From NCBI GenBank assembly GCA_963724465.1, contig CAVRUT010000009.1, positions 66,424-130,423 of the forward strand: a DNA stretch of 64,000 nucleotides, written 5' to 3'. This stretch comes from an uncultured Acidobacteriota bacterium (GTDB lineage: Bacteria; Acidobacteriota; Thermoanaerobaculia; UBA5066; Gp7-AA6). The position numbers were made by a program, and so were the translations under genes. This document shows, one piece after another, positions 4,618 to 57,416 of the stretch (position 1 is the first letter of the stretch; every line of letters starts with the position of its first letter). The notes below the pieces were generated by a model. The model was not told the origin of the DNA and made no database searches. It saw nothing but the letters and a program-made list of their open reading frames with translations.

Positions 4618-4631
4618 CCGACACGCTTCGA

Positions 4632-5957: not shown

Positions 5958-6184
5958 GGGGCACGGTGGTCGGTCCGCCTCGAAGCGACGGCTATCGCAA
6001 AGCGCCCACGCCGGCCCCGACGGTGCCCCTGTCGTCGACATCGAGCCGGTGCTGAACTCGGAGACGTGAGGGGGCGCCTTCCCTTTCTCCCGGCGAGAGA
6101 GGGTTGGCTCGGCGAACGCGAGCGACGTCCGCATCGTCGTCGTGATAGGTTTTCGACAACACGAACCGTGACGCGCAGCGACGA

Positions 6185-7666
6185 ATGCGTGCCGCGGCTG
6201 TCGAATCGGTGATCAACGAGATGAACGGGATCAGCGGACTCCGAGGCGGCATCCTGGCTCTTGCCCTGGTCATCGCCACGCGACCCGGAGCCCTGCTCGC
6301 GAAGCAGACGACGCCGCCGGCGGGGCAAGCTCCGAAGTCCACCACGCCTGCGTCCCCGGCAACGAAGGACGGCTGGAGGGCGCTGAGCGACGAGGCGATG
6401 ACGCTCTTCAAGGACGGGAAGCTTGCGGAGGCGGAGTCTCTCCTGAAGCAATCCCTCGCGGAGGTCGAGAAGGAGCTCGGGCCCAAGAACCCGAACGTCG
6501 CCCGGATCTTGAACGAGCTGGCATACGTCGACAGCGCCCAGGGAAAATACCCAGAGGCGGAACCGCTCTTTCAGAGAGCAGTCGCGATCGTCGAGAAATC
6601 CCTCGGGAAGGACAACGCGAACCTCGCGTCCGTCCTTCGCGGTCTGGCATCGGCCTACGCGGCCGAGGGCAAGTACGCCGAGGCCGAACCCCTGTTCCGG
6701 CGGGCGCTGGCGATCGCGGAGAAATCCTACGGGCCCGACCACGCCAACGTCGCCGCCGTTCTGGCCGGCTACGCCGAGCTGCTGCGCAAGACGGGCAAAG
6801 CCGATGAAGCGGCTCAAATGGACGCCCGGGCGCGGAAGATCCGCGGCGAGCCTTCCGGTGACACCAGGAGCGCCGCGGCATCGCCCACGCCGGGAGCAAA
6901 GTACTCCGATCGGGGCTACGACGCGCGCGTCGCGTATCGCGACGGCGATTACGCTACCGCGCTGAAGTTGTTCCGGGAGCTCGCGGACGAGGGCGACGCC
7001 GGCGCCCAGGCCGCTCTCGGAGACATGTACATGGAAGGAAAGGGCGTGAAAGCCGACTCCGCGGAGGCCGCTCGCTGGTGGCGCAAGTCTGCCGATCAGG
7101 GCTTCGCCGGCGCGCAATTGAACCTCGGCGCCTGCTACGAGAGCGGATGGGGAGTGCCGAAGGATCCGGCCGAAGCTGTCCGCTGGTACCGCAAGGCGGC
7201 CGACCAGGGCGACGCCAAAGCGTACAAGTACATGGGAGACATGTACGCCAGGGGCATCGGGGTGCCGAAGGATCCGAAGGAGGCCCAGGCCTGGTACGAC
7301 AAGGCCCGCGCGACGGAAGGGGCCTGGGCGGCAGGCGGGTCCTTCCGGCCGCCCGGCGAAGGAAAGAGCACGAGCTCGAAGGACATGATGTCGCTCGGCC
7401 TGCGCGCCGTGGACCTCCAGGACGAGATCGGGATCCTCGAGTGGGCCGTCCCTAAGGGCGTCCGGGTCACGCTCGGCAGAGAGGAAGTCACGTCCGCAAA
7501 CGGAAACGAGGTTCTCGCCCGCCTCAAGGCCGAGCGGACCGAGGTGGACCGTACGATGGAGCAGATGGGGGCGAAAACGGTTGCCGGCGACTACGAGCTC
7601 ACGGAGCCGCCGAAGGCCAAGTGCAGGGTCTTCGGCCAGCGGCCGCTGCAGTATCCGGTGAAGTGA
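6185..7666 (+). CDS. TPR (TPR_12-like) plus Sel1-repeat protein
   Basis: Three KLC-like TPR units (YAEAEPLF.RALAI.EK..GPDH) are followed by Sel1 repeats (A.RWYRKAADQGDA.A...LG..Y..G.GV.KD). The start may instead be the internal Met at 6221. Confidence 0.8.
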   Translation: MRAAAVESVINEMNGISGLRGGILALALVIATRPGALLAKQTTPPAGQAPKSTTPASPATKDGWRALSDEAMTLFKDGKLAEAESLLKQSLAEVEKELGPKNPNVARILNELAYVDSAQGKYPEAEPLFQRAVAIVEKSLGKDNANLASVLRGLASAYAAEGKYAEAEPLFRRALAIAEKSYGPDHANVAAVLAGYAELLRKTGKADEAAQMDARARKIRGEPSGDTRSAAASPTPGAKYSDRGYDARVAYRDGDYATALKLFRELADEGDAGAQAALGDMYMEGKGVKADSAEAARWWRKSADQGFAGAQLNLGACYESGWGVPKDPAEAVRWYRKAADQGDAKAYKYMGDMYARGIGVPKDPKEAQAWYDKARATEGAWAAGGSFRPPGEGKSTSSKDMMSLGLRAVDLQDEIGILEWAVPKGVRVTLGREEVTSANGNEVLARLKAERTEVDRTMEQMGAKTVAGDYELTEPPKAKCRVFGQRPLQYPVK

Positions 7667-7902
7667 GCGTCGTCCAGACGAACAACGCCATAGAGCTGAC
7701 GGGAAAGGAGCTCTACGCGTGCGGCGTCGTGATCGGCAATCTCGTCGTCATGAAGGACCAGCAATGCGCAGGCACCTCGCCGGGCCGAATTCTCGCGGTG
7801 GCCTCGGACGAAGGCATCCGGGATTTGACCCTTCTCGAGTCGGCCGGCGCCTCCGGGTCGTGCAAGCTCGGCAACCTGGCACGCGTGCAGGGGTCGAACT
7901 AG
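7663..7902 (+). CDS. Hypothetical 79-codon ORF, or a frameshifted C-terminal extension of the TPR/Sel1 gene
   Basis: GTG at 7663 overlaps the upstream stop (7664-7666). No family recognised. Confidence 0.25.
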   Translation: MSVVQTNNAIELTGKELYACGVVIGNLVVMKDQQCAGTSPGRILAVASDEGIRDLTLLESAGASGSCKLGNLARVQGSN

Positions 7903-7936
7903 GCAGACGGGCGCTCCGTCTTGACGGCGGAGTGTT

Positions 7937-9469
7937 CTACGCTCCGCCTTCTCCTTCCTCCACCCACCCCCGCGTGCGCTCGACCGCTCGCTTCCAGCCC
8001 CTGAACGCCGACTCCCGCCGGTCGTCGTCCCACTCGGGCTCGAACGTCCGGTCGGCCTTCCAGAGCCGCCGCAGCTGGTCCGTCGACTCGAACGCTCCCA
8101 CGGCGAGCCCCGCCGCGTAGGCCGCGCCGAGCGCGGTCGTCTCGCTCACGACCGGGCGGACCACGGGGACGCCGAGCACGTCGGCCTGGAGCTGCATCAG
8201 GAAATTGTTGACGCTCGCGCCGCCGTCCACCTTGAGGACCGAGAGCGGCTTTCCGCTGTCGGCCGCCATCGCGTCGGCAACCTCTCGGCTCTGGAAGCAG
8301 ATCGCCTCGAGCGTTGCGCGCACCAGGTGCGCGCGGTTCGCGAATCGCGTCAGGCCCACGATGGCGCCGCGCGCCAGCATGTCCCAGTGTGGCGCGAAGA
8401 GACCCGAGAAGGCCGGCACGAAGTAGATGCCTCCCGAGTCGGCCACGCTCGCGGCAATCTCCTCCGTCTCGGCGGCGGTTCTGATCAGGCCGAGGTTGTC
8501 CCGCAGCCACTGCACCGCCGCGCCCGACACCGCGACCGAGCCCTCGAGCGCGTAGGCCCGCTCTCCGGGACCCGAGCAGGCCGCCGTCGCGAGCAGGCCG
8601 GAGGCGCTCGGGGCGGGGTTGCCGCCGACGTGCTCGAGCAGGAAGGACCCCGTCCCGTAGGTGTTCTTCGCTTCGCCCGGGGCGAAGCAGCCCTGGCCCG
8701 CCAGCGCGGCCTGCTGATCTCCGAGGTCGCCGCAGACCGGGATCCTGGTGCCGAAGGGACCATCCGCGCGTGTGTAACCGTAGGGCTCCTTCGCGATGGA
8801 CGGCCGGATCGCCGGCAGCGCGCCCCACGGCACGCCGAACCGCTCGAAGAGAACCGGATCCCACTGGAGCTCCGCGAGGTTGCACAGGAGGGTGCGCGAG
8901 GCGTTGGTCGGATCCGTCACGTGCGCGCCGCCGCGCGGACCGCCGGTCAGATTCCAGATCACCCAGGTGTCGATCGTCCCCAGCCTCAGGTGTCCGGAGC
9001 GGGCGAGCTCGCGAACCGCGGCGACGTTGTCGAGCAGCCACCGGATCTTGGTCGCGGAGAAGTAGGTCGAGATCGGAAGCCCCGATCGCCGGCGCACGTC
9101 CTCCTCCCACCCCCGGTCGATCGCCGCCCGGCAGTCCGCCGCCGTTCGCGTGTCCTGCCAGACGATCGCGTTCGCGGCAGGCCGGCCGTCGCGCGCGTCC
9201 CAGGCCACGACCGTCTCGCGCTGGTTGGTGATCCCGATCGCGAGCACGCGCCCCGGAGGCGCCGCCCGCATCGCCTCGAAGACGACCTCGTCCACGCGCT
9301 CCCGGATCTCGAGCGGGTCGTGCTCGACCCAGTCGGGCTGCGGAAAGATCTGCTCGTGCTCGCGGTAAGCCGCGGCGACTGGAGTCCCCTCGAGGTCGAA
9401 CAGAATGCAGCGAGTTCCGGTGGTCCCCTGGTCGATCGCCGCTACGTACTCGTGCATCGCGGGGGTCAT
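7937..9469 (-). CDS. glpK: Glycerol kinase
   Basis: Full-length FGGY kinase. N-terminus YVAAIDQGTTGTRCILFD, with characteristic GlpK blocks throughout (GAYFVPAF-like FSGLFAPHWD). Confidence 0.95.
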   Translation of the reverse strand: MTPAMHEYVAAIDQGTTGTRCILFDLEGTPVAAAYREHEQIFPQPDWVEHDPLEIRERVDEVVFEAMRAAPPGRVLAIGITNQRETVVAWDARDGRPAANAIVWQDTRTAADCRAAIDRGWEEDVRRRSGLPISTYFSATKIRWLLDNVAAVRELARSGHLRLGTIDTWVIWNLTGGPRGGAHVTDPTNASRTLLCNLAELQWDPVLFERFGVPWGALPAIRPSIAKEPYGYTRADGPFGTRIPVCGDLGDQQAALAGQGCFAPGEAKNTYGTGSFLLEHVGGNPAPSASGLLATAACSGPGERAYALEGSVAVSGAAVQWLRDNLGLIRTAAETEEIAASVADSGGIYFVPAFSGLFAPHWDMLARGAIVGLTRFANRAHLVRATLEAICFQSREVADAMAADSGKPLSVLKVDGGASVNNFLMQLQADVLGVPVVRPVVSETTALGAAYAAGLAVGAFESTDQLRRLWKADRTFEPEWDDDRRESAFRGWKRAVERTRGWVEEGEGGA

Positions 9470-34941: not shown

Positions 34942-35852
34942 ATGCCCGAAGGAAACACGATCCACCGCCTCGCGCGGATCCACACGCGGGACTTCGGAGG
35001 CCGCCGCGTCGCCGTGAGCTCGCCGCAGGGCCGCTTCGCGAAGGAGGCCGATCGGCTCGACGGGCGGCGGTTCGTGCGCGCCGACGCCTACGGCAAGCAC
35101 CTCTTCCATCACTGGAGCGGCGGCCTCGTCGTGCACGTCCATCTCGGGATGGCCGGCTGGTTCTACCGGCACCGCAGCAAGCGTGCCCGAGCCGCGGTCG
35201 ACGGTGCGGATGCGCCTTTCGACGCGGGAAGTCTCGACCGACCTCATCGGGCCGCCGACCTGCGAGCTCATTCCGGAGTTCGCGCGCCGGGCGCTCGTCG
35301 CGCGACTGGGGCCCGATCCGCTGCGGCCGGACTTCGACCCGGAGCCCGCGCGGGCGGTTCTGCGCAAGCGGCCGCGCCGCGCGATCGGCGACGCCCTGCT
35401 CGACCAGCGCGTGCTCGCGGGAGTCGGGAACATCTACCGGAACGAGGCGCTGTACCTCGACGGGGATCCATCCGCTGAGGCCGTCGGGGAGCCTCACGGA
35501 AGAGGAGTGGGAGAGCCTGTGGCGGACGATCCGCAAGCTCATGCGCCGCGGAGTCGTCCAGGCGGAGATTCGCACCGTCGCCGCGGCCGAGCCGCCCCCG
35601 CATCCCCTCTCCGGGCGCGGACCGGACGATTCCTTCTACGTCTACCAGCAGGAAGTCTGCCGCCGGTGCGGGACGCCGATCAGCGAGTTCCCGCTCTCGG
35701 CCAGGCGCATGTTCGCGTGCCCGCGGTGCCAGCCGCAGCGGGGGGCGGCGGCGTTAGGCCCGAGCGGCGCGTCGAGGCTTGCCGGGGTCCCTGCTGGACC
35801 GAGGCGGAAACGAGCGCGCGCTCGAGAAAGCGGCGTTCGGCATCGTTGGTGA
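34942..35852 (+). pseudogene. nei: Nei/Fpg-family DNA glycosylase, two to three frameshifts
   Basis: MPEGNTIHRLA...HLGMAGWFYRH is in frame a. ...IGDALLDQRVLAGVGNIYRNEALYLDG is in frame b. IHPLRP...[25 protein letters not shown] (zinc finger) is in frame c. Shifts are at about 35175 and at the GGGG run 35462-35465. The likely native stop is TAG 35755-35757, if the G6 run at 35740-35745 is one base too long. Confidence 0.75.
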
Positions 35853-36935
35853 CGAGGGTGAGGGCGCGGCGATAGGCGTCGGCCGCCTCCTCGCGGCGGC
35901 CGAGACGCGCGAGGAGCTGGCCCCGGGCGGCGGGCAGCAGGTGGTAGGTCGAGAGCTCGCCGCGGCGGTCGAGATCGTCGAGCAGGCGCAGCCCTTCCTC
36001 CGGCCCGGAGGCCTCGGCGACCGCGGCCGCGTGGTTGAGCTCGACGACCGGTGAGGGCTGACGGGCGAGCAGCGCGCGGTAGAGCCCGACGATCTGGTGC
36101 CAGTCCGTGTCCTGCGGTCTCGCCGCCTCCGCGTGGACGGCTGCGATGGCGGCCTGGAGGGCGTAGGCGCTGTTGTCTCGGAGCGCCGACTCGGTCAGAG
36201 CGATGCCCTCTCGAATCTCCTGGTGGTCCCAGAGGCTGCGGTCCTGTTCCTCCAGGCGCACGAGCTCGCCCTCCGATGAGACCCGGGCGTTGCGGCGCGA
36301 GTCGTGGAGAAGCATCAGGGCGAGCAGTCCGCGGGCCTCGGCGCTGTCGGGCATGAGCTCGGTCACGAGGCGCGCCAGGCGGATCGCCTCGGCGCAGAGC
36401 TCCCGCCGCACGAGCTCCGCGCCCGACGTCGACGCATAGCCTTCGTTGAAGACGAGGTAGAGCACGGCGAGCACCGCATCGAGCCGCTCGGGCAGCGCCT
36501 CGTCGGGCGGGACGCGGTACGGGATGCGGGCCTGGCGGATCTTCTGCTTGGCACGCACGAGCCTCTGGGCCATCGTGGGCACGGGGACGAGGAACGCCCG
36601 CGCGATTTCGTCGGTCGTCAGGCCGCCGAGCGTGTGGAGCGTGAGGGCCACGCGGGCCTCGACGCCGAGAGCCGGGTGGCAGCACGTGAAGATCAGGCGC
36701 AGGCGGTCGTCGGCGACGCGGTTGTCCTCGGGATGGGCGAAGTCGGGAGGGGCGCCCTCTTCCAGCGCGGCCCAGTGCGCGAGCTCCTCGCGCTTTTCAC
36801 GGAACCGCGCATCCCGCCGCAGGCGGTCGATCGCCTTGTGGCGCGCGGTCGAGACGAGCCAGGCGCGCGGGTTTTCTGGAACGCCGTGCCCGGGCCACCG
36901 CTCGAGCGCCGCCGCGAACGCGTCGTGCCCCGGGG
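35680..36935 (-). pseudogene. ECF-type sigma-70 factor with a long C-terminal (DUF6596-like) domain, 5'-truncated
   Basis: The readable frame begins mid-region-2 ([37 protein letters not shown]). Region 4 is [36 protein letters not shown]. About 40 N-terminal codons and any start codon are missing. Confidence 0.7.
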
Positions 36936-45284: not shown

Positions 45285-46013
45285 TCAGCTCCCGCTCTCG
45301 TCCCGTGTTCCTGCGAACACCTCACGGACGTCTTCCGCCGAGCGGGCTTCCAGAAGCCTCCGGACCAACTCCTCCTTGTGAACGAGGTAGCTCAGCCGAG
45401 CCTCCCAGAGGAGCTGGATCGAGACTGTCTGGGTTAGCAGGATGAAGGCGATCCTTGGTCGGTGCTCGTAGGGGTCATGAAAGTCAACCGGTCCGAGGGC
45501 CCGAATCACCACGATCTGGTTCGACCCGAGCAGGCGTCTGCCCGCTTCCTTCGGATGCGGATACGCGACATCCGGATGGAACGCGGTGCTAGAAAGAGCT
45601 TCGCGCTCGAGGACGGACCGGCAGATCCGCTCGTTCGCCGTTTCAGCCCCGGCCGGTCCCGGGCCCTCAGCGAGCACGATGCGAGCGCGGCGAAAGGCAG
45701 CGCGGATGAGCTGCGCCGCATCGCGCTGGGGCGCGTCGAGGAAGACGTTCTGAACGTCCAGATAGGGATGAAGGCTGATCTCACAGCCCGGGTAACTGAC
45801 TGGCTCGGCCGGCATTTGCTCCACGGACCGGCGTCTCGCAATCCACTCTTCCAGATCGCTGACGCGCAGACGCCAGCGTCCATCCACGCGGACAGCGTGA
45901 AGTTCCCCCGATAGTCGCCGGACGGTCGTCGGAGAGAGCGAGAGATAGCGCACAGCGTCGGCGACCGACATCGTCTCCTCGGCGTCGAGCATCTCCTGCT
46001 CCTGCGAACCCAT
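45285..46013 (-). CDS. Excisionase-type HTH fused to a PTS EIIA-2 (PtsN-like) domain, copy 2
   Basis: N-terminus MSVADAVRYLSLSPTTVRRL...RLRVSDLEEWI. The EIIA-like core has the His loop VAYPHPK and FILLT...LLWEARLSYL. Its start is 1 nt after the upstream stop. Confidence 0.65.
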   Translation of the reverse strand: MGSQEQEMLDAEETMSVADAVRYLSLSPTTVRRLSGELHAVRVDGRWRLRVSDLEEWIARRRSVEQMPAEPVSYPGCEISLHPYLDVQNVFLDAPQRDAAQLIRAAFRRARIVLAEGPGPAGAETANERICRSVLEREALSSTAFHPDVAYPHPKEAGRRLLGSNQIVVIRALGPVDFHDPYEHRPRIAFILLTQTVSIQLLWEARLSYLVHKEELVRRLLEARSAEDVREVFAGTRDESGS

Positions 46014-46377: not shown

Positions 46378-47097
46378 TCAGTTGCCGACCCTTGCCGAGA
46401 GCTCCGGCTCCAGGATCCGCTCCGCTTGAATGAGTGACTCGTAAATCGCGGCGGTGTCCGCAGCCTCGAGCAGGTCCTTGACGGCGTGCTCACGAGCGAG
46501 CATTTGCGAGAGCTTGAAGAGCCAGGGCAGGTGCAGCTCTTCGTACTTGAGGCCCAACACGAAGAAGAGATGCGTCGGTTTTCCGTCGAGGGCGTCGAAT
46601 TCCACTCCCTCGAGCGACCGCCCGAGCACCATGAACGGTCGGACGATCTGCTCGGGATTGCGGCGCAGCGTGTGCAGGAAGGCGATGCCACCTCCGAATG
46701 CTCCCGGAAACACGTTTTCCCGTTGAATCAGAGCCCCCACGAACCAGGTCTTGTCGCGGACGAGTCCCAGGCGGTGCGCGAGCCCCGACAACTCTTCGAT
46801 CACCCCGTTCTTGGTCTGGGCGGTGAGCTCCGGGATGATGTGATCCGGCTGAAAGCAGGTCGAAAGACCCAGCATGCGCCGGGGCGAACCCTCCATCGGA
46901 GGTCCGCTGAGATAGCGGGGCAACACTCCCAGCATCTGGTCGTCCAGCCAGGTGTCGATCATTGCCTTTCGAAAACGCCATTGGCTGCCGACCTTCACGC
47001 CCGGAACGGTGCCGTCAGCCACCAGCTTCAAGGCGGTCCGCTCGTTAACGTTCAGGTAAGCAGCCAGTTGCTTCACAGTCATCAAGCGATCTTCCAT
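46378..47097 (-). CDS. Excisionase-type HTH fused to a PTS EIIA-2 (PtsN-like) domain, copy 1
   Basis: MTVKQLAAYLNVNERTALKLVADGTVPGVKVGSQWRFRKAMIDTWL. The EIIA-2 core is TKNGVIEELSGL...GGGIAFLHT...THLFFVLG...HLPWLFKLSQML. Confidence 0.75.
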   Translation of the reverse strand: MEDRLMTVKQLAAYLNVNERTALKLVADGTVPGVKVGSQWRFRKAMIDTWLDDQMLGVLPRYLSGPPMEGSPRRMLGLSTCFQPDHIIPELTAQTKNGVIEELSGLAHRLGLVRDKTWFVGALIQRENVFPGAFGGGIAFLHTLRRNPEQIVRPFMVLGRSLEGVEFDALDGKPTHLFFVLGLKYEELHLPWLFKLSQMLAREHAVKDLLEAADTAAIYESLIQAERILEPELSARVGN

Positions 47098-47590: not shown

Positions 47591-47726
47591 CCATCTAGTC
47601 GGCGGCTCTCCGTGCGTGGTTGGGTCTGGTCGGAAAGCACGAGAGGGTCAGTGGCGAGCGGTGTAGGAGCCGAACGGAGCGCGTGCGCTAAGCCAAGGAC
47701 TGATCCGATAAGGGCCGGACCTTAGG

Positions 47727-47880
47727 TGAACCCATGGGATTCTTGCGAATCCCTGAATGATTTCGACTTACTCCCTCGATTTGTCCGTATCGATGTCCGC
47801 GTTGGCGTGGAGAAAACGAGATGCGGATCGGCCCGTGGGCCAGCGTTCGAGCTGAACTTCAGCTCGTCGCAGCGCGCAGC
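47727..47880. repeat. X repeat, copy A (begins with the tmRNA T-loop heptamer TGAACCC)
   Basis: ATGGGATTCTTGCGAATCCCTGAATGATTTCGACTTACTCCCTCGATTTGTCCGT... aligns with copies at 49885 and 52705. Hairpin GGGATTC/GAATCCC at 47736-47753. Confidence 0.7.
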
Positions 47881-47939
47881 AGACACTGGAGAAGGGAGCG
47901 TGCCGCGGCCGCTGGTATCGTGGGGCCGGAGGTGCCGCC

Positions 47940-48932
47940 ATGAGCCGCCTGGCCGCCGTTCTCGCCGCGCTCCTTCTGGCGCCGATCGCGCTGACCGCCG
48001 AGCCTTCGCCAACGGTCCCGCTTCGCCCGGTCCACACCTACTCGATCGTCGCCCGCGATGCGGCGACGGGCGAGATGGGCGTGGCCGTTCAGTCGCACGC
48101 GTTCTCGGTCGGCTCGGGCGTGACGTGGGCGGAGGCGGGCGTGGGCGCGGTCGCGACCCAGTCGTTCATCGACCCGAGCTACGGGCCGCTCGGCCTCGCC
48201 ATGATGCGCGCCGGGCGGAGCGCCCCCGACGCCCTCAAGGGGCTCCTTGCGGCAGACGACGGGCGCGACGTGCGGCAGGTGGCGATGATCGACGCCTCCG
48301 GCCGCGTCGCCGCCCACACCGGCGTGAAGTGCATTCCGGCCGCGGGGGATCACGTCGGCGAGAACTACTCCGTCCAGGCGAACCTGATGGAGAAGGACAC
48401 CGTGTGGCCCGCGATGGCGAAGGCGTTCGAAACGACGCGCGGCGACCTCGCCGATCGGATGCTCGCCGCGCTCGAGGCCGCCCAGGGGGAGGGCGGCGAC
48501 ATCCGCGGCATGCAGTCGGCCGCGATTCTCGTCGTCAAGGGCGTCTCGAGCGGGCGGCCGTGGCAGGACCGAATCTTCGACCTCCGCGTCGAGGACCATC
48601 CGTCGCCCGTCGCGGAGCTTCGGCGCCTCGTCAGGCTCCAGCGCGCCAACAACCTCGCGAGCGAAGGGGACCGCGCGTTGGAGAAGAAGGACGACGCCAA
48701 GGCGCTCGAGGCCTACGGCGCGGCCGAGACCCTTGTCCCCGACGACGCCGAGATGGCCTACTGGCACGCCGTCGCCATGGTGAACGCGGGGCGCTTGGAC
48801 GAATCGCTCCCCGTCTTCGCGAAGGCCTACCGCCTCTACCCCAAATGGCGTGAGATGGCAGCGCGCCTCTCGAAGGTGGGGCTCCTCCCGGACGACCCGA
48901 AGGTCATCGCCCGCATCGTCGCCGCGAAGTAG
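47940..48932 (+). CDS. DUF1028 family (Ntn-hydrolase-like) secreted protein with a TPR-like tail, copy 1
   Basis: Signal peptide, then HTYSIVARDAATGEMGVAVQSHAFSVGSGVTWAEAGVGAVATQSF, typical of DUF1028. About 93% aa identity to 50782-51774. Confidence 0.75.
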   Translation: MSRLAAVLAALLLAPIALTAEPSPTVPLRPVHTYSIVARDAATGEMGVAVQSHAFSVGSGVTWAEAGVGAVATQSFIDPSYGPLGLAMMRAGRSAPDALKGLLAADDGRDVRQVAMIDASGRVAAHTGVKCIPAAGDHVGENYSVQANLMEKDTVWPAMAKAFETTRGDLADRMLAALEAAQGEGGDIRGMQSAAILVVKGVSSGRPWQDRIFDLRVEDHPSPVAELRRLVRLQRANNLASEGDRALEKKDDAKALEAYGAAETLVPDDAEMAYWHAVAMVNAGRLDESLPVFAKAYRLYPKWREMAARLSKVGLLPDDPKVIARIVAAK

Positions 48933-48987
48933 CGGGTCGGGCTGCGGCTCGCTGAGCTTGCACGGAGCGAGGAGTCACTTCTCTTTT

Positions 48988-49169: not shown

Positions 49170-49269
49170 CGGCCAAACAGGTGGGGTCACGCCGGGGCTC
49201 GTCCGGATCTCCGTCGGCATCGAGGACGCGGCCGACATCCTGGCCGACCTCGATCAGGCACTGGCCTGA
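49170..49269 (+). pseudogene. Orphan 3' fragment of the cystathionine gamma-lyase/synthase gene (diverged copy of the 56283-56370 end)
   Basis: Encodes ...GVTPGLVRISVGIEDAADILADLDQALA*, identical at the aa level to the C-terminus of 56283-57416. About 85% nt identity by eye. Confidence 0.7.
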
Positions 49270-49299
49270 CGAGGCGGGCTCGCGCGCCCGCCCGGGGCC

Positions 49300-49581
49300 T
49301 CAGCTCGCGTGTCGGAGGCGCATCGGTCCCCGGGCGGCGCGTTCCTCCGGGAACGCAACGGCGACCGGGCGCGTGCGGACGGGGGCCTGCATCCACTTGG
49401 CCATCAGCCAGAACTGCTCGCCGCCGCACTTGGGGCACGTCCGGTTCCGGACGCTGAAGGTGACCAGGCAGTCGAGACAGAGCGCCGTCTCGCCTTCCCG
49501 GACGGCCTCGCCGAACCTCGACTCGGCACGAATCCGGGAATCGGACCATCCCAGCCAGTTCGACTGATCACGGACCCCCAT
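49300..49581 (-). CDS. Small zinc-ribbon protein (93 aa), copy 1
   Basis: RBS GGAGG, with CLDC...CPKC. The central 46 codons are identical in aa to 55971-56252, with 5 synonymous nt differences. Confidence 0.65.
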   Translation of the reverse strand: MGVRDQSNWLGWSDSRIRAESRFGEAVREGETALCLDCLVTFSVRNRTCPKCGGEQFWLMAKWMQAPVRTRPVAVAFPEERAARGPMRLRHAS

Positions 49582-49739
49582 GGGAGCCTCCTTCGTTCCG
49601 AGCCGCCTTTCGATCGCTGCGACTCGGGGGTCGGCCCCGGCAGAGTCCAGCGGGACCCCTGATGCTATCGCGACTTCCTGTCTGGGAGGACAGGTGTCGA
49701 GGTCCCACGGACAGGTACGGACAGGTCTTCGATGGCGGC

Positions 49740-49880
49740 TAAACGTTGTCAGCGCACGAGTTCGACGCGCGATACGGTCGGTCGGACCGAGGGAACTGGG
49801 GGAGGGTAACGGCTTCGGACCCGGACGATACGCGGCAGGAACGAGGCCGAAACATGGAGAGACGAAACCGACACCTGGCG
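49740..49880 (-). pseudogene. Degenerate 3' fragment of the VWA-like gene (copy of the 55700-55820 end)
   Basis: ...CTCCCCCAG...GCGTCGAACTCGTGCGCTGACAACGTTTA aligns with the end of 54558-55820. The frame is broken by one base. Confidence 0.5.
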
Positions 49881-49884
49881 GGAA

Positions 49885-49970
49885 CGATCCGATTCCTGGA
49901 GTTTTCATCTTTGAATTGGAAATTCCTGAGTGATTTGAGTCACCTCCCTTGTCGTTGTCCGCGTTGCGGC
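49885..49970. repeat. X repeat, copy B (most diverged)
   Basis: ...AATTCCTGAGTGATTTGAGTCACCTCCCTTGTCGTTGTCCGCGTTGCGG aligns with X-A and X-C. Confidence 0.5.
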
Positions 49971-50144
49971 TGCATGATGGCGATGACGGCCCACGCCGCG
50001 GGCGAACGCACGCGTCGCAGATCGGCGGGCAACGGCTCGATACCCTGCCGTGGGCTGGATGTATACATTGCGTATGTCCGAGGCCCATGAACGCACGAAA
50101 GCAAGAGCCGCTCGACTTCGCCTGAGAGAAAGAGATCTTGCCTG

Positions 50145-50711: not shown

Positions 50712-50781
50712 GTCCCTCGTCGAGATCTCGAGAAGGGAGCGCACCGGCGGCCGCTGGTATCGTGGGGCCGGAGGTGCCGCC

Positions 50782-51774
50782 ATGAGCCGCCGGACCGCCG
50801 TTCTCGCCGCGCTTCTTCTGGCGCCGATCGCACTGACCGCCGATCCTGCGCCCCCGATCCCGCTTCGCCCGGTCCACACCTACTCGATCGTCGCCCGCGA
50901 TGCGGCGACGGGCGAGTTGGGCGTGGCCGTCCAGTCGCACGCGTTCTCGGTCGGCTCGGGCGTGACGTGGGCCGAGGCGGGCGTGGGCGCGGTCGCGACG
51001 CAGTCGTTCATCGACCCGAGCTACGGGCCCCTCGGCCTCGCCATGATGCGTGCCGGACGGAGCGCCCCCGATGCCCTCAAGGGGCTCCTTGCGGCCGACG
51101 ACGGGCGCGACGTGCGGCAGGTGGCGATGATCGATGCCTCCGGCCGCGTCGCGGCGCACACCGGCGCGAAGTGCATCCCGGCCGCGGGGGATCACGTCGG
51201 CCAGAACTATTCCGTCCAGGCGAACCTGATGGACAGGGACACCGTGTGGCCCGCGATGGCGAAGGCGTTCGAGACGACGCGCGGCGACCTCGCCGATCGG
51301 ATGCTCGCCGCGCTCGAAGCCGCCCAGGGGGAGGGAGGCGACATCCGCGGCATGCAGTCGGCCGCGATCCTCGTCGTCAAGGGCGTCTCGAGCGGGCGGC
51401 CGTGGCAGGACAAGATCTTCGACCTCCGCGTCGATGACCATCCGTCGCCGGTCGCGGAGCTCCGGCGCCTCGTCCGGCTCCAGCGCGCCAACAACCTGGC
51501 GAGCGAGGGGGATCGCGCGTTGGAGAAGAAGGACGACGCCAGGGCGCTCGAGGCCTACGGCGCGGCCGAGGCTCTCATCCCCGACGACGCCGAGATGGCC
51601 TACTGGCACGCCGTCGCCCTCGTGAACGCGGGCCACGTGGACGACTCACTCCCCGTCTTCGCGAAGGCCTACCGCCTCTACCCCAGGTGGCGCGAGATGG
51701 CCCCGCGCCTCTCGAAGGTGGGACTTCTTCCGGACGACCCGAAGGTCATCGCTCGAATCGTCGCGGCGAAGTAG
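50782..51774 (+). CDS. DUF1028 family secreted protein, copy 2
   Basis: Collinear with 47940-48932, with 22 aa differences in 330 by my count. Confidence 0.75.
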   Translation: MSRRTAVLAALLLAPIALTADPAPPIPLRPVHTYSIVARDAATGELGVAVQSHAFSVGSGVTWAEAGVGAVATQSFIDPSYGPLGLAMMRAGRSAPDALKGLLAADDGRDVRQVAMIDASGRVAAHTGAKCIPAAGDHVGQNYSVQANLMDRDTVWPAMAKAFETTRGDLADRMLAALEAAQGEGGDIRGMQSAAILVVKGVSSGRPWQDKIFDLRVDDHPSPVAELRRLVRLQRANNLASEGDRALEKKDDARALEAYGAAEALIPDDAEMAYWHAVALVNAGHVDDSLPVFAKAYRLYPRWREMAPRLSKVGLLPDDPKVIARIVAAK

Positions 51775-51898
51775 CGGGTCGGGTCGCTGGGACGGGTCGT
51801 GTGACTAATTCTTCGCGGGCTTCGCGTTGCGCGGGTCGTCTGCCGGGTTCACATACTTGAACTCGACCGGACCCTTCATCGCCGGACCGGAATCGCGG

Positions 51899-52339: not shown

Positions 52340-52639
52340 GAATTCCTCCTCCTGGCAACTGGCTGCCGGTGGATTCCGGCAATGCGAAGTCTATCCAAGA
52401 CACCCGACGGATGGCTAGTGTCCGGAAACTGTCAGTCGGATGTGCGCCGGCGGCGCCCTCCGGCGGCGCGGGCAGGACGGCTGGTACTTCGCCCGCGTCG
52501 CCTTGTAAGCCTTGTCCCACGCCTCGGACTTGCCCGTAGCGAGCGACGTCTTGATGTCCGGATCGGCTTCCTCGAACGACGAGGGTGCTCCCCGGCGGTA
52601 GGTCGAGAGATCAACCTGGCGTGCGAATCCAATAGAAAA

Positions 52640-52658
52640 GGGCCGGAAGTTCCGGCCC
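52640..52658 (-). terminator. Intrinsic terminator, inferred original ssrA terminator
   Basis: On the minus strand: GGGCCGGAA-C-TTCCGGCCC followed by TTTTCTATT. It lies 20 nt after the displaced tmRNA CCA end. Confidence 0.7.
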
Positions 52659-52678
52659 TCGTCTCGATAGATATGAAA

Positions 52679-52704
52679 TGGTGAAGGCGGCGGGAGTTGA
52701 ACCC
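52679..52704 (-). repeat. Displaced copy of the last 26 nt of ssrA (attR-like core)
   Basis: TGGTGAAGGCGGCGGGAGTTGAACCC versus TGGTGGAGGCGGCGGGAGTTGAACCC at 53625-53650 (25/26). Confidence 0.8.
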
Positions 52705-52906
52705 ATGGAATTCCTGCCAATTCCTGAACGATTTCGACGTACTCCCCCGATTTGTCCGTGTCGTTGTCAGCGTTGCCCGGCCGTTCTCGAAGAGCTGAAT
52801 AGCCGGTTGCAAAGGGCTCCGCTCCAGATCCGAGAAAAGTAAGCGTCCAACGGCACCTCTCAAGCCTCTGTTTTTCTCTCAGAAGTCGCAGGAATCAGCC
52901 TTCATG
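52705..52906. repeat. X repeat, copy C (longest; abuts the displaced ssrA end)
   Basis: ATGGAATTCCTGCCAATTCCTGAACGATTTCGACGTACTCCCCCGATTTGTCCGT.... Hairpin GGAATT/AATTCC at 52707-52724. Confidence 0.7.
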
Positions 52907-52908
52907 GC

Positions 52909-53054
52909 CGGGAGAGGCCACTCCACGCTTAGCCTCCTCTGGGTTCTTGCCCCGCCACCTCGAGAAGAGGCAAGACGGCGGAAGGGCAACTCGGGATTCG
53001 TTTCGCCGCCGGGTCCGGGGAACCGCCGCGGCTACACCGGCATTTCGCGACGTC
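52909..53054 (-). pseudogene. Partial, diverged copy of internal tmRNA sequence
   Basis: 146 nt collinear with 53667-53812, with about 22 mismatches by eye. The 11-bp helix of the intact gene carries 3 mismatches here. Confidence 0.7.
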
Positions 53055-53334
53055 ACCGGTAGGCATCCTTCCGATGATCGGCGGCGGTCAGGAAGACGAT
53101 GTGCTTCTCGTCGTCGATCTCGTAGAAAAGCCGCCAGCTCCCGATCCGAATTCTCCAGGTCGGAGGATCCCAGTCCTTGAGGCGCGCGGCCGACGCAGCG
53201 GCGCGGGGCGCCGCCCGGAGAATCGGATAGACCCGCTTCAAGAGCGTGTTCTGGATTCGCTTCGCCGCTTCGGGTCCGAGGGTGGCGAGATCGCGCTGGA
53301 AGCCTGTCGTCTCGAAGATGCGGTACTCAGACAA
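53053..53334 (-). CDS. RelE/ParE-family type II toxin
   Basis: ...WRIRIGSWRLFYEIDDEKHIVFLTAADHRKDAYR. It overlaps the antitoxin gene by 8 nt. Confidence 0.8.
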   Translation of the reverse strand: MSEYRIFETTGFQRDLATLGPEAAKRIQNTLLKRVYPILRAAPRAAASAARLKDWDPPTWRIRIGSWRLFYEIDDEKHIVFLTAADHRKDAYR

Positions 53335-53566
53335 AGCGGCCCTTGCCGCTCACCGCGTCTCGATGGCCTCTCTTCAGGCGCCGGCCAAGAGCGGGCTTGG
53401 AGCGAATCTCGCTCATCTCGGCATCCGACACGAAGATCTCCGCCACGGCTCGCTGTCTGGCTGCCGTCTCGATGAAGTTGGAGACCGAGCGGTTCTCCGT
53501 GGCGGCGGCCTCGGCGATGAGGCGGTACGTCGCGTCGTCGATGCGAACGGTCAGGGTCTTGGGCAT
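53327..53566 (-). CDS. Ribbon-helix-helix (CopG-like) antitoxin
   Basis: MPKTLTVRIDDATYRLIAEAAATENRSVSNFIETAARQRA. It lies upstream of and overlapping the toxin gene. Confidence 0.7.
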   Translation of the reverse strand: MPKTLTVRIDDATYRLIAEAAATENRSVSNFIETAARQRAVAEIFVSDAEMSEIRSKPALGRRLKRGHRDAVSGKGRFV

Positions 53567-53624
53567 TGCATCACTCCGATAGCATATTACCATCATAGTG
53601 ATGCAGCCCGTTCTGAAAGAGGAA

Positions 53625-53985
53625 TGGTGGAGGCGGCGGGAGTTGAACCCGCGTCCGGAAGCGCGGCGGGAGAGGCCACTCCATGCTCAGCCTCTTCTTG
53701 GTTCTCGCCCTGCCGCCTCGAGAAGAGGCAAAACGGCGGCAGGGCAACCCCGAATTGATTTCGCCGCTCCGTCCGGGGGTCCGGAGCGGCTACACCCGCA
53801 TTTCGCGACGTCGGGCGCGGCGCGGCGGGTGCGCTACACGCCAAACGAGGCTACTTAATTAAGCAGCCAGAGCGAAGTTGCTGTTGTTCGCAGCTACTAT
53901 TTTTCACCCTGCTTTTACGAGGAGGGGTGAGACCTCGGCATGCGACCTCTCGCGTCATCGTCCCCGTCGAAGCCGTTTCGCCCCC
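53625..53985 (-). ncRNA. ssrA: tmRNA (SsrA), tag AANNSNFALAA
   Basis: 5' GGGGGCGAAACGGCTTCGACGGGGA. The acceptor stem has a G3:U pair. The tag ORF GCU GCG AAC AAC AGC AAC UUC GCU CUG GCU GCU UAA (53859-53894) follows AAAAAUAGUA. The 3' end is GGACGCGGGTTCAACTCCCGCCGCCTCCACCA. Confidence 0.93.
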
Positions 53986-54557: not shown

Positions 54558-55820
54558 TTGACCTCCGGCGTCCAGCAGGTGAGGTTGAACGTCCAGGGCC
54601 GCGTCGCGGAGGTAGAGCTCCTCCTCGACGGCGAAGAAGTCGCCACGTTCGACAGCCCGCCCTGGGTCGCGCCGATCGATCTCGGTCCGGCGCTGTCGCC
54701 GCACGAGCTCGTTGCCCGCGCGCTCGACGAGAAGGGCTCGGAGATCACCCGGGTGCGCCAGTGGATCAACATGCCGCGGCCGCCGGCCGAGGCCAAGATC
54801 CTCCTCGAGCGCGACGCGAAGGGGCGCGTGAAGGCCGCGACGATCGCCTGGCAGAACCTGATGGGGGAGGAGCCGTCGAAGATCTCCGTCAGCTTCGACG
54901 GCCGGCCCGTCGCGATCGACGCTTTTCGCCGCGTGATCATCCCGCCGTACGCGCCCGAGGTCTCGCACGTCCTGACCGTCGAGCTCGATTTCGAGAGCGG
55001 GATGAGCTCGCGGGACGATCTCGCGATCGGAGGCGGCGCGGGCGACGAGGCCAGAAGCGAGCTGACGGCCGTTCCGGTCCGCCGGACGACCAGGCGCAAG
55101 CTCGAGCCGAAGGCGTTCGATGGCCTCCTGCGCGTGCGCGATCAGCCGCTCCGCGTGGCGACGGTCGAGGAAGGGGGCGCCTCGCTCTGGATCGTGCGCG
55201 ACGAGAGCGCCCTCGAATCCTTCTCGAAGCTGCGATCCGGCAGCGGTTCCCCGCTCGGAGGGATCTTCGCCCCCTCGGCCCTGCCGCTGAAGAAGGGAGA
55301 CGAGGTCCGCTTCCTCTGGCCGCGGCCGAGAGGCGTGGCCGGCGCCGCCGTGCCGACGGCCCTCTTTCCGTCCTCGCAGCTCTTCGACCGCTCGAGCGGC
55401 GGCCTCGCCTTCCTGCTCGAGCGCATCACCAACACCGAGCCGGCGGGGCTCTTTCCGATGTACACGGACGCCGTGGCGGTCGCGGGACTGAATGCCTTCG
55501 AGAGCTTTGGACGGCGCGCCGTGCTCCTCGTGCTGACCGGCTCGGCCCCGGACCTGAGCACCTACAAGCCCGCGGTCGTCCGGCGGTACCTGGAGATCCT
55601 GCGCGTGCCGCTCTTCGTGTGGTCGCTCGACGCGGAGGCTTCCGGCGAATCCCCGTGGGGCAGCGTCGACGCCGTCGGCACGAGCCGGGGGCTGCGCGCC
55701 GCCTACTCGCGGCTGCGCGAGTCGCTCGACTCACAGGCGATCGTTTGGGTCGAGGGCCGCTATCTCCCCCAGGAGATCGAGCTCGCGCCATCCGCATCGG
55801 GCGTCGAACTCATGCGCTGA
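54558..55820 (+). CDS. VWA-related (TIGR03436-like) protein, 5' end unresolved
   Basis: The C-terminal part resembles the acidobacterial VWFA-related domain (AVLLVLTGSAPDLS...LEILRVPLFVWSL). The first start codon (TTG 54558) lies after a signal-peptide-like stretch (ATVAFLSLFLGL) that has no start of its own. Confidence 0.55.
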   Translation: MTSGVQQVRLNVQGRVAEVELLLDGEEVATFDSPPWVAPIDLGPALSPHELVARALDEKGSEITRVRQWINMPRPPAEAKILLERDAKGRVKAATIAWQNLMGEEPSKISVSFDGRPVAIDAFRRVIIPPYAPEVSHVLTVELDFESGMSSRDDLAIGGGAGDEARSELTAVPVRRTTRRKLEPKAFDGLLRVRDQPLRVATVEEGGASLWIVRDESALESFSKLRSGSGSPLGGIFAPSALPLKKGDEVRFLWPRPRGVAGAAVPTALFPSSQLFDRSSGGLAFLLERITNTEPAGLFPMYTDAVAVAGLNAFESFGRRAVLLVLTGSAPDLSTYKPAVVRRYLEILRVPLFVWSLDAEASGESPWGSVDAVGTSRGLRAAYSRLRESLDSQAIVWVEGRYLPQEIELAPSASGVELMR

Positions 55821-55970
55821 CAACGTTTAAGCGTCACCGATCCCTTGCCCGTACGACCTGGACACCTGTCCCCGGGGACAGGAAATCGCGATACGATTCC
55901 TGGTCCCGCTGGACTGGGCTCGCCCCCGAGTCGCAGCGACGGAAGACGGCTCGGAACCAAGGAGGCTCGC

Positions 55971-56252
55971 ATGAGGGTCCTTGATCGGTCGAACTGGCTG
56001 GGATGGTCCGATTCTCCGATTCGAGCCGAGTCGAAATTCGGCGAGGCCGTCCGGGTAGGCGAGACGGCGCTCTGTCTCGACTGCCTGGTGACCTTCAGCG
56101 TTCGGAACCGGACCTGCCCCAAGTGCGGCGGCGAGCAGTTCTGGCTGATGGCCAAGTGGATGCAGGCTCCCGTCCGGACGCGCCCGGTCGCCGTTCCGTT
56201 CCCGAAGGAACACGTCGCCCGGAGACCGATGCGTCTCCGAGAGGCGGGCTGA
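55971..56252 (+). CDS. Small zinc-ribbon protein (93 aa), copy 2
   Basis: RBS AAGGAGG, with CLDC...CPKC. Paralog of 49300-49581. Confidence 0.65.
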   Translation: MRVLDRSNWLGWSDSPIRAESKFGEAVRVGETALCLDCLVTFSVRNRTCPKCGGEQFWLMAKWMQAPVRTRPVAVPFPKEHVARRPMRLREAG

Positions 56253-56282
56253 GGCCCGGGCCGGACGCCCAAGCCCGGCTCG

Positions 56283-57416
56283 TCAGGCCAGCGCCTGGTC
56301 CAGGTCGGCCAGGATGTCGGCCGCGTCCTCGATTCCTACGGAGATGCGCACGAGGCCAGGGGTCACGCCGAGGCGATTGCGCTCCTCCTCCGGAATCGAG
56401 CCGTGGGTCATCGAGGCGGGATGCGAGATGAGCGTCTCGACGCCGCCGAGGCTCTCACCGAGCGAGCAGAGGCGCACCTTCGCCAGGAACGCGCCGGCCG
56501 CCTCGAGCGACCCGAGATCGAACGAGATCATCGCGCCGAACCCCCGCATCTGCTTCTTCGCGAGGGCGTGCTGGGGATGGGACGGCAGCCCCGGGTAGTG
56601 GACCTGCTGGATCTTCGGATGCCGGGCGAGGTGCTCGGCGACTTTCCGGCCGTTCTCCTCGTGGCGCTCCATGCGGACGACGAGGGTCTTGATCCCGCGG
56701 AGCACCAGAAACGAGTCCATCGGCGACAGGATCGCGCCCGAGCTGTTCTGCACGAACCCGAGCCACTCGACGTGCTCCTTCGCCTTCGCGATGGCGACGC
56801 CGCCGACCGTGTCGGAGTGGCCGCCGAGAAACTTCGTCGTCGAGTGCATGACGATGTCGGCGCCGAGCGAAAGCGGCTGCTGAAGGTACGGTGAGGCGAA
56901 AGTGTTGTCGACGACGACGATGGCGCCGACGCGATGGGCGAGCTCCGAGAGCCGCGCGATGTCGGCCAGCCGCATCGTCGGGTTGGTCGGCGATTCGAGG
57001 TGGAGCATCCGCGTCTCCGGCCGGATCGCCCGCTCGACCGCCGCCGGGTCCGCCGTGTCGACGAAGTCGAACGTGACGCCGTAGCGCGCCAGGATCTTCG
57101 TGTAGTAACGGTAGGTCCCGCCGTACGTCATGTTCGAGCAGACGACGTGGTCGCCCTGCTTGACGAAGGTCGAGATCGCCGTGATCGCCGCCATGCCCGA
57201 GGCGAAGGCCTTCGCGCCCGTTCCGCCCTCGAGGACGGTGAGGTTCTCCTCGAGCCGCGCGCGCGTCGGGTTCTGTGTGCGCGCGTACTCGAAGCCCTTG
57301 TTCCGGCCGAGCCCCTCCTGGACGTAGGTCGAGGTCTGGTAGATCGGGAACGAGACGGACCCGGTCGCGGGCTCGGGTTCGTTCCCGGCGTGAATGCAGT
57401 CGGTCGAGAAGCCCAT
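56283..57416 (-). CDS. Cystathionine gamma-lyase/gamma-synthase family PLP enzyme
   Basis: Cys/Met-metabolism PLP family: YARTQNPTR, the HSTTKFLGGHSD lysine motif, and the C-terminal RISVGIEDAADILADL. Confidence 0.9.
   Translation of the reverse strand: MGFSTDCIHAGNEPEPATGSVSFPIYQTSTYVQEGLGRNKGFEYARTQNPTRARLEENLTVLEGGTGAKAFASGMAAITAISTFVKQGDHVVCSNMTYGGTYRYYTKILARYGVTFDFVDTADPAAVERAIRPETRMLHLESPTNPTMRLADIARLSELAHRVGAIVVVDNTFASPYLQQPLSLGADIVMHSTTKFLGGHSDTVGGVAIAKAKEHVEWLGFVQNSSGAILSPMDSFLVLRGIKTLVVRMERHEENGRKVAEHLARHPKIQQVHYPGLPSHPQHALAKKQMRGFGAMISFDLGSLEAAGAFLAKVRLCSLGESLGGVETLISHPASMTHGSIPEEERNRLGVTPGLVRISVGIEDAADILADLDQALA

Follow-up and report, generated by a model that had tools for sequence, protein, structure and literature searches.

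Islands that integrate in tDNA, the genes for tRNA and transfer-messenger RNA (tmRNA), leave a regenerated target gene and a displaced 3' fragment of it in the same orientation, and such displaced fragments mark the island ends (Hudson, Lau and Williams 2015, PMC4383910). In the islands catalogued with Islander, the tmRNA gene ssrA is a favoured target, crossover falls in the T-loop/acceptor region and tandem stacking occurs (PMC4383910). The ssrA islands of Dehalococcoides are also arranged in tandem and inserted in the T-loop, with a conserved motif just upstream of each 20-bp ssrA repeat; some have no integration module and were interpreted by the authors as cis-mobilizable (McMurdie et al. 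2011, PMC3146451). Here we examine the ssrA locus of an uncultured member of the Acidobacteriota, contained in a 64-kb stretch of contig CAVRUT010000009.1 (the window, in which all positions below are counted). Directly behind ssrA lies a 0.95-kb islet, with all its elements on the minus strand and a toxin-antitoxin (TA) operon as its only genes. We consider the segment 53624-52677 to be quite probably a degenerate ssrA islet without integrase, located in the T-loop/acceptor end of the gene, and the member nearest to ssrA of a stack of relics that extends to about 47.7 kb.

The locus has the listed features in common with the Islander islands. It differs from them in measuring 0.95 kb and lacking an integrase, whereas Islander drops candidates that are smaller than 2 kb or integrase-less (its range is 2-200 kb), and in holding an internal foreign tmRNA piece, a type of fragment that Islander filters out (PMC4383910). 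With the Dehalococcoides islands, both the window and a related array, L007, share the presence of several cassettes behind ssrA, ssrA 3' copies, an upstream motif and T-loop insertion (PMC3146451). On the other hand, 16 Dehalococcoides islands carry a DsiB serine-recombinase module by attL and their conserved motif has 15 nt (PMC3146451), whereas here no recombinase turned up in any cassette and the conserved arm has about 75 nt. The islet also belongs to a different phylum and has its TA pair directly at attL. The first-pass annotation, made from the letters of this DNA only, did not recognise such an arrangement; its minimal TA-only islet stands, but the kind has already been described (PMC4383910, PMC3146451). 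What is unusual is the minimal size, the TA pair as only cargo, the captured foreign tmRNA fragment and the clade-wide occurrence of long-arm cassettes without recombinase.

The intact tmRNA gene matches the Rfam model over positions 1-374, untruncated, with 186.4 bits (E 2.2e-74), and is 98.6% identical to ssrA of the closest relative, L087. When the 26-mer at the tmRNA end was searched with up to three mismatches allowed, exactly two sites were found, against 0.00 expected from 100 shuffles. The second site, E2, is a direct repeat of the ssrA end, and the distance from repeat start to repeat start is 946 bp. The sequence downstream of E2 matches the flank that lies directly 3' of the functional ssrA in four other loci (L088, L089, L090 and L091). 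A scan of the minus strand from 54200 to 52300 gave one terminator-like site only, the hairpin 17 nt past E2, and none between the tmRNA and the TA pair. Judged by its homologues behind ssrA in these four loci, this hairpin is the native ssrA terminator, pushed 0.95 kb away. All elements listed by the first-pass annotation (tmRNA, TA pair, both tmRNA copies and terminator) were recovered at their positions, and its proposals of a second tmRNA 3' end downstream and of a tmRNA lacking its own terminator, with a hairpin after the second copy, were both borne out. The coordinates are given in Table 1.

Table 1. Elements of the ssrA locus and of the cassette stack in the window.
Feature	Position	Strand	Evidence or remark
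ssrA, intact one-piece tmRNA gene, tag AANNSNFALAA	53625..53985	-	ARAGORN; Rfam RF00023
attL-side repeat copy: T-loop to CCA plus 2 nt, within functional ssrA	53623..53650	-	27/28 vs 52677-52704
TA control region	53567..53605	-	inverted repeat, extended -10-like motif, GGAG
Ribbon-helix-helix (RHH; CopG/RelB-like) antitoxin gene, 79 aa	53327..53566	-	Pfam RHH_1, TacA1
RelE/ParE-superfamily toxin gene, 93 aa, TTG start	53053..53334	-	Pfam PF05016
B, decaying copy of tmRNA positions 174-319, foreign type	52909..53054	-	84.9% vs 53667-53812
Unique spacer of about 130 nt from B to X core, presumably island interior	52778..52908	-	
X-C, conserved right-end arm of ssrA cassette family	52705..52777	-	nhmmer E 4.8e-22
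E2, displaced ssrA 3' end (attR side), one acceptor-stem mismatch	52677..52704	-	27/28 vs 53623-53650
Intrinsic terminator GGGCCGGAA/TTCCGGCCC plus T-run	52638..52660	-	10 pairs, 7 G-C
X-B, partial arm relic, tmRNA copy gone	49919..49975	-	nhmmer E 0.0046, weak evidence
X-A, second full arm, ends GGGTTCACCT (T-loop copy remnant), unrelated sequence after	47724..47805	-	nhmmer E 2.5e-20

Because loci found through the toxin are biased to occupied sites, five further ssrA loci were fetched via CutA homologues. In three of these (L088, L090 and L091), ssrA is followed after about 20 nt by a hairpin and T-run homologous to that of the window (in L088 ATCGAGTCGAGGGCCG...CGGCCCGGTTTT, compared with ATCGAGACGAGGGCCGGAACTTCCGGCCCTTTT in the window), after which core genes begin. 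With an intact ssrA and its terminator adjoining each other in this way, the three loci represent the empty site that the first-pass annotation had proposed to look for. L089, which is the ssrA locus of the genome that holds L007, has the same junction of ssrA and terminator, but unlike the other three it has an array of cassettes and the TA pair 10-24 kb further downstream. The alignment of L087 with the window, 94.4% identical over 10.5 kb, stops at 53620, 5 nt past the CCA, and beyond this breakpoint L087 has unrelated genes. It was rejected as an empty site, as its native terminator is missing and other DNA follows ssrA. The TA pair was next to ssrA in none of the five CutA-chosen loci, so the cassette is accessory. 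Furthermore, L088 is colinear with the occupied locus L001 from the sigma factor gene across tmRNA positions 174-361, which indicates that in L001 the downstream tmRNA piece is native and that the insertion comprises the TA pair and all that lies upstream of it. The suggestion that the locus bears an insertion footprint in the T-loop/acceptor end of ssrA is thus supported by the empty sites and the CCA breakpoint, with site-specific recombination as the likely process.

Within the operon, the antitoxin gene lies upstream and its stop is overlapped by the toxin start by 8 nt. The antitoxin matches RHH_1 with 26.9 bits (cutoff 20.5) as well as TacA1, and gives weak NCBIfam matches to YlcI/YnfO_N and RelB_antitoxin. 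The toxin matches ParE_toxin with 36.7 bits (cutoff 23). In a profile search against the PDB its matches were 2KHE, Rv2866 (3G5O_B) and Escherichia coli RelE, although the similarity is distant (E 1.9e-5 to Rv2866 and 0.03-0.3 to E. coli RelE); the C-terminus has conserved basic and aromatic residues (H87, R88, Y92, R93). The control region contains a 9-bp inverted repeat (TGCATCACT at 53605-53597, AGTGATGCA at 53575-53567) enclosing an extended -10-like motif of the TGnTAnnAT type (TGGTAATAT, 53592-53584), and GGAG is found 8 nt upstream of the antitoxin ATG. Inverted repeat and TGnTAnnAT motif are kept in an alignment of nine loci. A strict two-hexamer scan of this region found no promoter, so the promoter is given as putative.

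The relBE-type systems have the same antitoxin-first order, overlapping genes, an RHH repressor and a RelE-family toxin of about 93 aa, with sequence similarity to the pair in the islet being only distant (PMC2812701, PMC5224514). Their palindromic operator over the promoter would correspond to the 9-bp inverted repeat around the -10-like motif of the putative promoter (same sources). The sequence therefore points to a relBE-like, autoregulated module, with toxin and antitoxin activity assigned by homology. The toxin has 136 homologues at E <= 1e-5, and the 120 of these that were listed are 62-100% identical; all those with a taxon name come from Thermoanaerobaculia. In plasmids and phages, tblastn with the toxin as query retrieved nothing, and exact-sequence look-ups of the window's toxin and CutA, and of P0001, the representative of the 100%-identical cluster, were also without a hit.

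The internal tmRNA copy, B, matches its 146-nt counterpart in ssrA with E 1.7e-41 and starts on the toxin stop codon. The same junction of stop codon and tmRNA position 174 is present in L001 and L013. Compared with every functional tmRNA, B is 83-88% identical over 146 columns, which means that it is decaying, and it has unique changes that break helices. At the type-diagnostic positions (GAAACGAAT, CCCTTCCGCC, GGCGGGGC) B agrees with L006, L010, L013 and the L001 fragments and not with L087, L088 or the window's own ssrA; it is thus foreign as well. The first-pass annotation had left the choice between decaying and foreign, and both turn out to apply. The presence of a second, decayed tmRNA gene was ruled out, as no 5' half is present anywhere. 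The two tmRNA pieces of the islet do not form one copy interrupted by an insertion: the 16 nt of tmRNA that should lie between them (CCGCGCTTCCGGACGC) are replaced by 204 nt.

These 204 nt had been described as a 200-nt repeat. A repeat indeed exists, but its conserved core has only about 75 nt, and the remaining 130 nt or so are unique, without a match in any locus fetched (positions 1-124 of the X query). In a self-comparison of the window, the final 81 nt of the stretch (52695-52775) recur at 47724-47804 with 86% identity. The core is not an ordinary repeat either, but resembles an attachment-site arm shared by a cassette family. This arm, X, is made up of a pair of direct repeats (CGGACAA and, 5 nt further, ACGGACAAA), a block rich in purines and a short hairpin abutting the T-loop copy; X-C has the same parts, with (C)TGACAA N5 ACGGACAAA as direct repeats and the hairpin just before its T-loop copy. 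Mean column identity among eight copies is 87% over 100 nt. The arm stands in front of a tmRNA 3' copy at three places in L007 and also in L010, L013, L085 and L086, and in every arm-linked tmRNA copy the identity to ssrA starts at GGGTTCAACT in the T-loop. The X-A copy extends as far as GGGTTCA(C)CT, with which the T-loop copy starts, and diverges beyond this point. Since the three arms of the window are all on the minus strand and downstream of ssrA, the TA islet appears as the ssrA-proximal member of a relic stack that reaches 47.7 kb. The genes carried by this stack encode a secreted-looking protein of 146 aa, DUF1028 proteins (two genes) and a tyrosine-phosphatase-like protein; its cargo also includes the 3' end of a Cys/Met gene, copied in inverted orientation.

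A scan of both tmRNA copies with the Rfam model gave the full-length match at ssrA and, at 52679-52748, a match of 18 bits, below the gathering score of 47. This match, together with a GGGGGAG/CGCCUCC complementarity, had suggested that X plus E2 might form a tRNA-like structure or mini-tmRNA. The fold was rejected: pair counts equal those of shuffled controls, the 5' strand varies without compensation, and z-scores range from -0.02 to -2.7, unexceptional in three of four copies. Given these negative RNA-fold tests, X is read as the element-side arm of the attachment site, and its direct repeats are likely candidates for protein-binding sites.

Homologue look-ups with the toxin and one genome scan gave 83 loci onto which the pieces of the window were mapped; overall, about 20 related Thermoanaerobaculia loci were compared. 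The simplest layout, in L004, L009 and L011, is cutA, ssrA, the TA pair and a 64-68-nt copy of the tmRNA 3' end, whereas L006 has the same order and lacks the downstream copy. In L013, cutA and ssrA are followed by 6.6 kb of cargo, an X arm, a 29-nt tmRNA 3' copy and the TA pair, after which come a much decayed copy of tmRNA 174-325 and an extracytoplasmic function (ECF) sigma factor gene. L010 is laid out in the same way, with 3 kb of cargo. L007 has three X arms, each with a 26-nt tmRNA 3' copy, and one truncated arm over 13 kb; its TA pair directly follows the second arm, and the array reaches to about 24 kb from ssrA. L001 has a decayed tmRNA 3' end, the TA pair and a contiguous copy of tmRNA 174-361, without X.

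Thus the TA cassette stands behind a tmRNA 3' end in at least seven assemblies besides the window, and it starts 13-72 nt past the CCA (window, L004, L006, L007, L009/L011, L010, L013). The tmRNA 3' piece after the TA pair covers 188 nt in the window and L001, about 150 nt in L013, 64-68 nt in L004, L009 and L011, and about 35 nt in L010. No tmRNA sequence is found near toxin relatives that are at most 75% identical. In L007, L010 and L013 both the cassette and the 26-nt copy are part of cassette stacks bounded by tmRNA 3' copies, at 3 to 16 kb downstream from the ssrA of their own genome; the occurrence of both away from ssrA, which the first-pass annotation had named as a counter-indication, was never seen outside an ssrA-anchored array. 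That annotation also took the DNA between the repeats as a single insert. An insert is confirmed, but it is composite, as the TA pair and tmRNA 3' half form a unit that has X on its other side in L013 and occurs without X in L001. The nucleotide identity of the TA pair, 97% to L001 and 93% to L013, is discordant with its flanks (housekeeping genes of L013 are 80-84% identical), which indicates horizontal exchange of the TA pair together with B.

Two further observations concern these relatives. The contigs of L009 and L011 are identical over the stretches compared near ssrA and the TA pair, yet their bins bear different labels, Fimbriimonadaceae and Thermoanaerobaculia, the first of which is probably due to a binning error. 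A second type of flank (GTAGAACCGGGCTCCGG..TCCGGCGTCGG) follows the tmRNA 3' end in L004 (10347-10410), L010 (6589-6700), L013 (2960-3070) and L086 (reverse, 1244-1300). It stands after the functional ssrA in some loci and after the last displaced copy in others, and the identity between element and chromosome may extend about 45 nt beyond the CCA in part of the clade.

Domain searches for a recombinase covered the window and the arrays of relatives. No integrase was present within 42-58 kb of the window and no recombinase domain among its roughly 45 gene-like open reading frames (ORFs) tested, which have ordinary metabolic or regulatory domains or none. Between the repeats only the TA genes were found, in agreement with the first-pass statement that the insert carries no integrase. 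An ORF domain search of the arrays of L007, L010 and L013 yielded no recombinase, and neither did the precomputed Pfam lists for the called genes of L089, which together with L007 covers the whole array of that genome. The cargo of these three arrays includes cytochrome c peroxidase, bile-acid/sodium symporter-family, thioredoxin-like, ArsR-rhodanese and PhoD proteins, as well as two large domain-less proteins. In L013, the 6.6-kb cassette (3242-9106, minus strand) has two gene-like ORFs of 1074 and 879 aa with a third-position GC content of 0.80-0.84 and no Pfam match at E < 0.001.

Scans of viral and metagenome contigs recovered no intact, integrase-bearing element with the X arm. The X arm pattern had no match in viral contigs. 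In metagenome contigs, the pattern of arm plus T-loop gave three matches: two short true ones and L084, which was rejected because it is a chance match to an unrelated tmRNA gene. A looser scan for paired CGGACAA repeats retrieved 18 viral contigs with repeat clusters and none with the rest of X. Eight of the IMG/VR contigs (L093, L096, L097, L099, L100, L104, L107 and L109) have three to six direct repeats of (A)CGGACAAA, and in several of the 18 the clusters lie within about 100 nt of the contig end.

The arrangement can be explained by the behaviour of mobile elements that target ssrA, which come equipped with a copy of the gene's 3' end. Because of this copy, insertion restores a working tmRNA gene and shifts the native 3' end and terminator to the far side, where E2 and the hairpin (52704-52638) would represent them. 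The junctions were presumably made by a site-specific recombinase with its crossover in the T-loop region, like those of other tDNA islands (PMC4383910). The insert now retains the presumably autoregulated TA operon right after the CCA, B as a piece travelling with the operon, and the X arm, which in all cassettes of the family appears to adjoin the crossover point. As a recombinase is not encoded in the islet, the window or the arrays of relatives, the islet would be fixed or movable only in trans. Concerning the order of events, the 946 bp may have come as one trans-mobilised unit, built earlier in a donor of the L013/L001 type in which an X-type island inserted into the displaced tmRNA copy behind the TA pair (scenario a). 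The islet may also have been formed in place, if an X-type island inserted into the displaced tmRNA copy and a later deletion ran from tmRNA position 320 into that island (scenario b). We consider scenario a the more probable one because B is foreign and the TA pair is highly identical to those of L001 and L013.

Loss of the islet, by deletion or by excision between the repeats, would leave a stable toxin without antitoxin. Addiction to the TA pair would most likely explain why this scrap persists, and also the TA-only inserts in L004, L009 and L011. A parallel is CP4So of Shewanella oneidensis, reportedly a prophage that occupies the ssrA of its host. As a full cryptic prophage it possesses an integrase and an excisionase, whereas here the TA pair is almost the whole element. 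Its ParE/RHH pair is required for maintenance of CP4So after excision (PMC8706911). This pair, ParESO/CopASO, likewise combines a RelE/ParE-superfamily toxin with an RHH antitoxin on an ssrA-integrated element, but ParESO is described as ParE-type (PMC8706911), whereas the islet toxin groups with RelE-type toxins by profile search.

Several observations weigh against the degenerate islet as proposed here. No integrase, circular form or attP form was found, which leaves the recombination mechanism unproven, and the lack of a recombinase in all of about nine cassettes examined is unexpected for decayed autonomous islands. The 16-nt replacement between B and E2 requires an extra deletion in scenario b or an earlier-captured tmRNA piece in scenario a. 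Since L087 is not empty, it does not tell when, or in which direction, the change took place. For the TA pair, the toxin score for NCBIfam RelE_StbE is under the cutoff of that model, and both activities have homology as their sole basis.

The absence of recombinases would fit an active system in which X plus the T-loop copy is the recombination site, and a recombinase encoded elsewhere inserts cassettes at ssrA and removes them, in an integron-like or cis-mobilizable manner. In such a system, the 946-bp TA cassette would count as an entire mobile unit instead of a relic. Chromosomal integrons consist of stacked, small, promoter-poor cassettes without own recombinase, each of which ends in a conserved recombination site, and TA cassettes stabilise them. 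The arrays described here are similar in being stacks of recombinase-less cassettes that end in a conserved site, with a TA pair among them. They are unlike integrons in that no IntI-type integrase, tyrosine recombinase or attI was found and no attC-like imperfect palindrome was demonstrated; moreover, they are anchored on an RNA gene, whose 3' end is copied within their repeated site. In agreement with mobilisation in trans, none of the roughly nine X/tmRNA-bounded cassettes in four genomes has a recombinase, and the arm keeps 87% mean column identity across genomes with about 80% housekeeping identity. The order X, tmRNA 3' end and TA in L007, L010 and L013 is that expected for a circular form of the window cassette, the paired CGGACAA-type repeats resemble protein-binding sites (with similar clusters in IMG/VR contigs, several near the contig end), and the discordance of TA identity with the flanks is the sole indirect hint of mobilisation. 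Nevertheless, the searches brought to light neither a recombinase nor a free attP or circle; the pattern had only three matches in metagenomes, one of them by chance, and none in viral contigs. The distal arms X-A and X-B lack tmRNA copies, as fossils would, and covariation in the arm hairpin is not above controls. We therefore regard such an active system as unlikely, and it is with equal reserve that we mention the possibility of an ssrA-anchored platform in Thermoanaerobaculia that captures, stacks and reshuffles arm-ended cassettes, with the TA cassette policing the array.

Homologous recombination would explain the mosaic without any recombination site: ssrA would be a conserved anchor beside which downstream DNA is swapped between strains, and the tmRNA pieces would be debris from long ago, or else have arisen between ssrA and its fragments by gene conversion or unequal recombination. 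It is true that ssrA is 94-99% identical where the flanks have 78-94% identity, that the downstream mosaic contains the same blocks in different order (DoxX-MEDS, ORF146, DUF1028, sigma-YCII-MacB, phosphatase), and that the 64-68-nt copy in L004, L009 and L011 is identical to the functional copy of the same locus including lineage variants, which fits gene conversion. The origin of the direct repeats and the sharp CCA breakpoints are left unexplained, however, and a conserved non-tmRNA arm that abuts the exact T-loop position in several genomes cannot be accounted for, which makes homologous recombination as the only process improbable. Lower still we rate a selected linkage, in which RelE-type ribosome-dependent mRNA cleavage and tmRNA rescue are coupled by an operon placed behind an unterminated ssrA. 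The nearest solved relatives of the toxin are RelE-family proteins by profile search, RelE-cut mRNAs are tmRNA substrates whose rescue is important for recovery (PMC5224514, citing Christensen and Gerdes 2003), no terminator separates ssrA from the operon, and in at least eight genomes the TA pair comes immediately after a tmRNA 3' end. Such coupling is rated very unlikely because the TA pair is not next to ssrA in any of the five unbiased CutA-chosen loci, follows a dead tmRNA stub instead of the gene in three genomes (L007, L010 and L013), and has distant relatives (toxin at most 75% identical) that are not near tmRNA; moreover, the operon has its own conserved control region. On present evidence, the position of a RelE-type toxin next to the tmRNA gene is suggestive, but a by-product of the integration site and not a selected coupling. 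A chimeric join of strain variants at the tmRNA repeats would be an assembly artefact; the source resembles a metagenome-assembled genome, and the L004 contig ends 64 nt past its downstream tmRNA copy, in line with the ability of repeats to break assemblies. Still, the order of tmRNA, TA and tmRNA fragment recurs in the independent assemblies L004, L009, L011, L013 and L001, from different projects and assemblers, and the repeats in the window, only 28 nt, or 85% identical over 146 nt, are too weak to mislead an assembler, so misassembly is excluded for practical purposes.

Apart from the islet, the stack and its surroundings contain other duplicated DNA. The DUF1028 gene, which has a TPR tail, is present as two direct copies in different cassettes (47886-48941 and 50727-51783), 93.6% identical to each other; it is single-copy in L002 and in L088, about 91% identical to both window copies. 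An inverted repeat of about 590 nt with 85% identity (49183-49777 and 55792-56369) holds, in both copies, the last codons of a Cys/Met-metabolism pyridoxal phosphate-dependent enzyme gene and a small zinc-ribbon-like ORF. The copy near 56 kb is the genuine end of the Cys/Met gene (56283-57416), beyond the other side of ssrA, while the 49-kb copy is inside the stack; the latter is 85.7% identical to the single copy of L087, thus equally distant, and looks like core DNA captured from another strain. Just past the last X relic, two adjacent paralogues (45285-46013 and 46378-47097, minus strand) have HTH_17 (excisionase/MerR-like) fused to PTS EIIA-2 and are, by domain content, regulators and not excisionases.

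On the cutA side, a 420-aa gene without Pfam or NCBIfam match (54558-55820) separates cutA from the Cys/Met gene. L087, L088, L089 and L090 have this gene too, whereas L004, L006, L010 and L013 lack it and have cutA directly adjoining the Cys/Met gene. At 35680-36651 (minus strand), an ECF sigma factor with DUF6596 is only 67-69% identical to the sigma gene behind ssrA/TA in L001, L013 and L088; it is a paralogue and not a displaced neighbour, and L091 has a gene of the same family behind ssrA. Dispersed intergenic repeats of about 40-50 nt with the core GTCATCCCGAGCGCAGCGAGGGATCCC occur on both strands (14509, 21463, 23705, 26873, 29637, 30266, 30343, 44779, 61790 and 61857) and have the appearance of repetitive extragenic palindromes or miniature inverted-repeat transposable elements.

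The islet shows that an ssrA island can shrink to a TA operon with attachment-site debris and persist. Similar scars in little-studied phyla are probably under-counted because island finders discard cases that are integrase-less, smaller than 2 kb or contain internal tDNA fragments. Beyond this single islet, a family of integrase-less cassettes with a shared arm is present behind ssrA in several Acidobacteriota genomes, and if a recombinase that acts on it in trans exists, the family would represent a new gene-capture platform.

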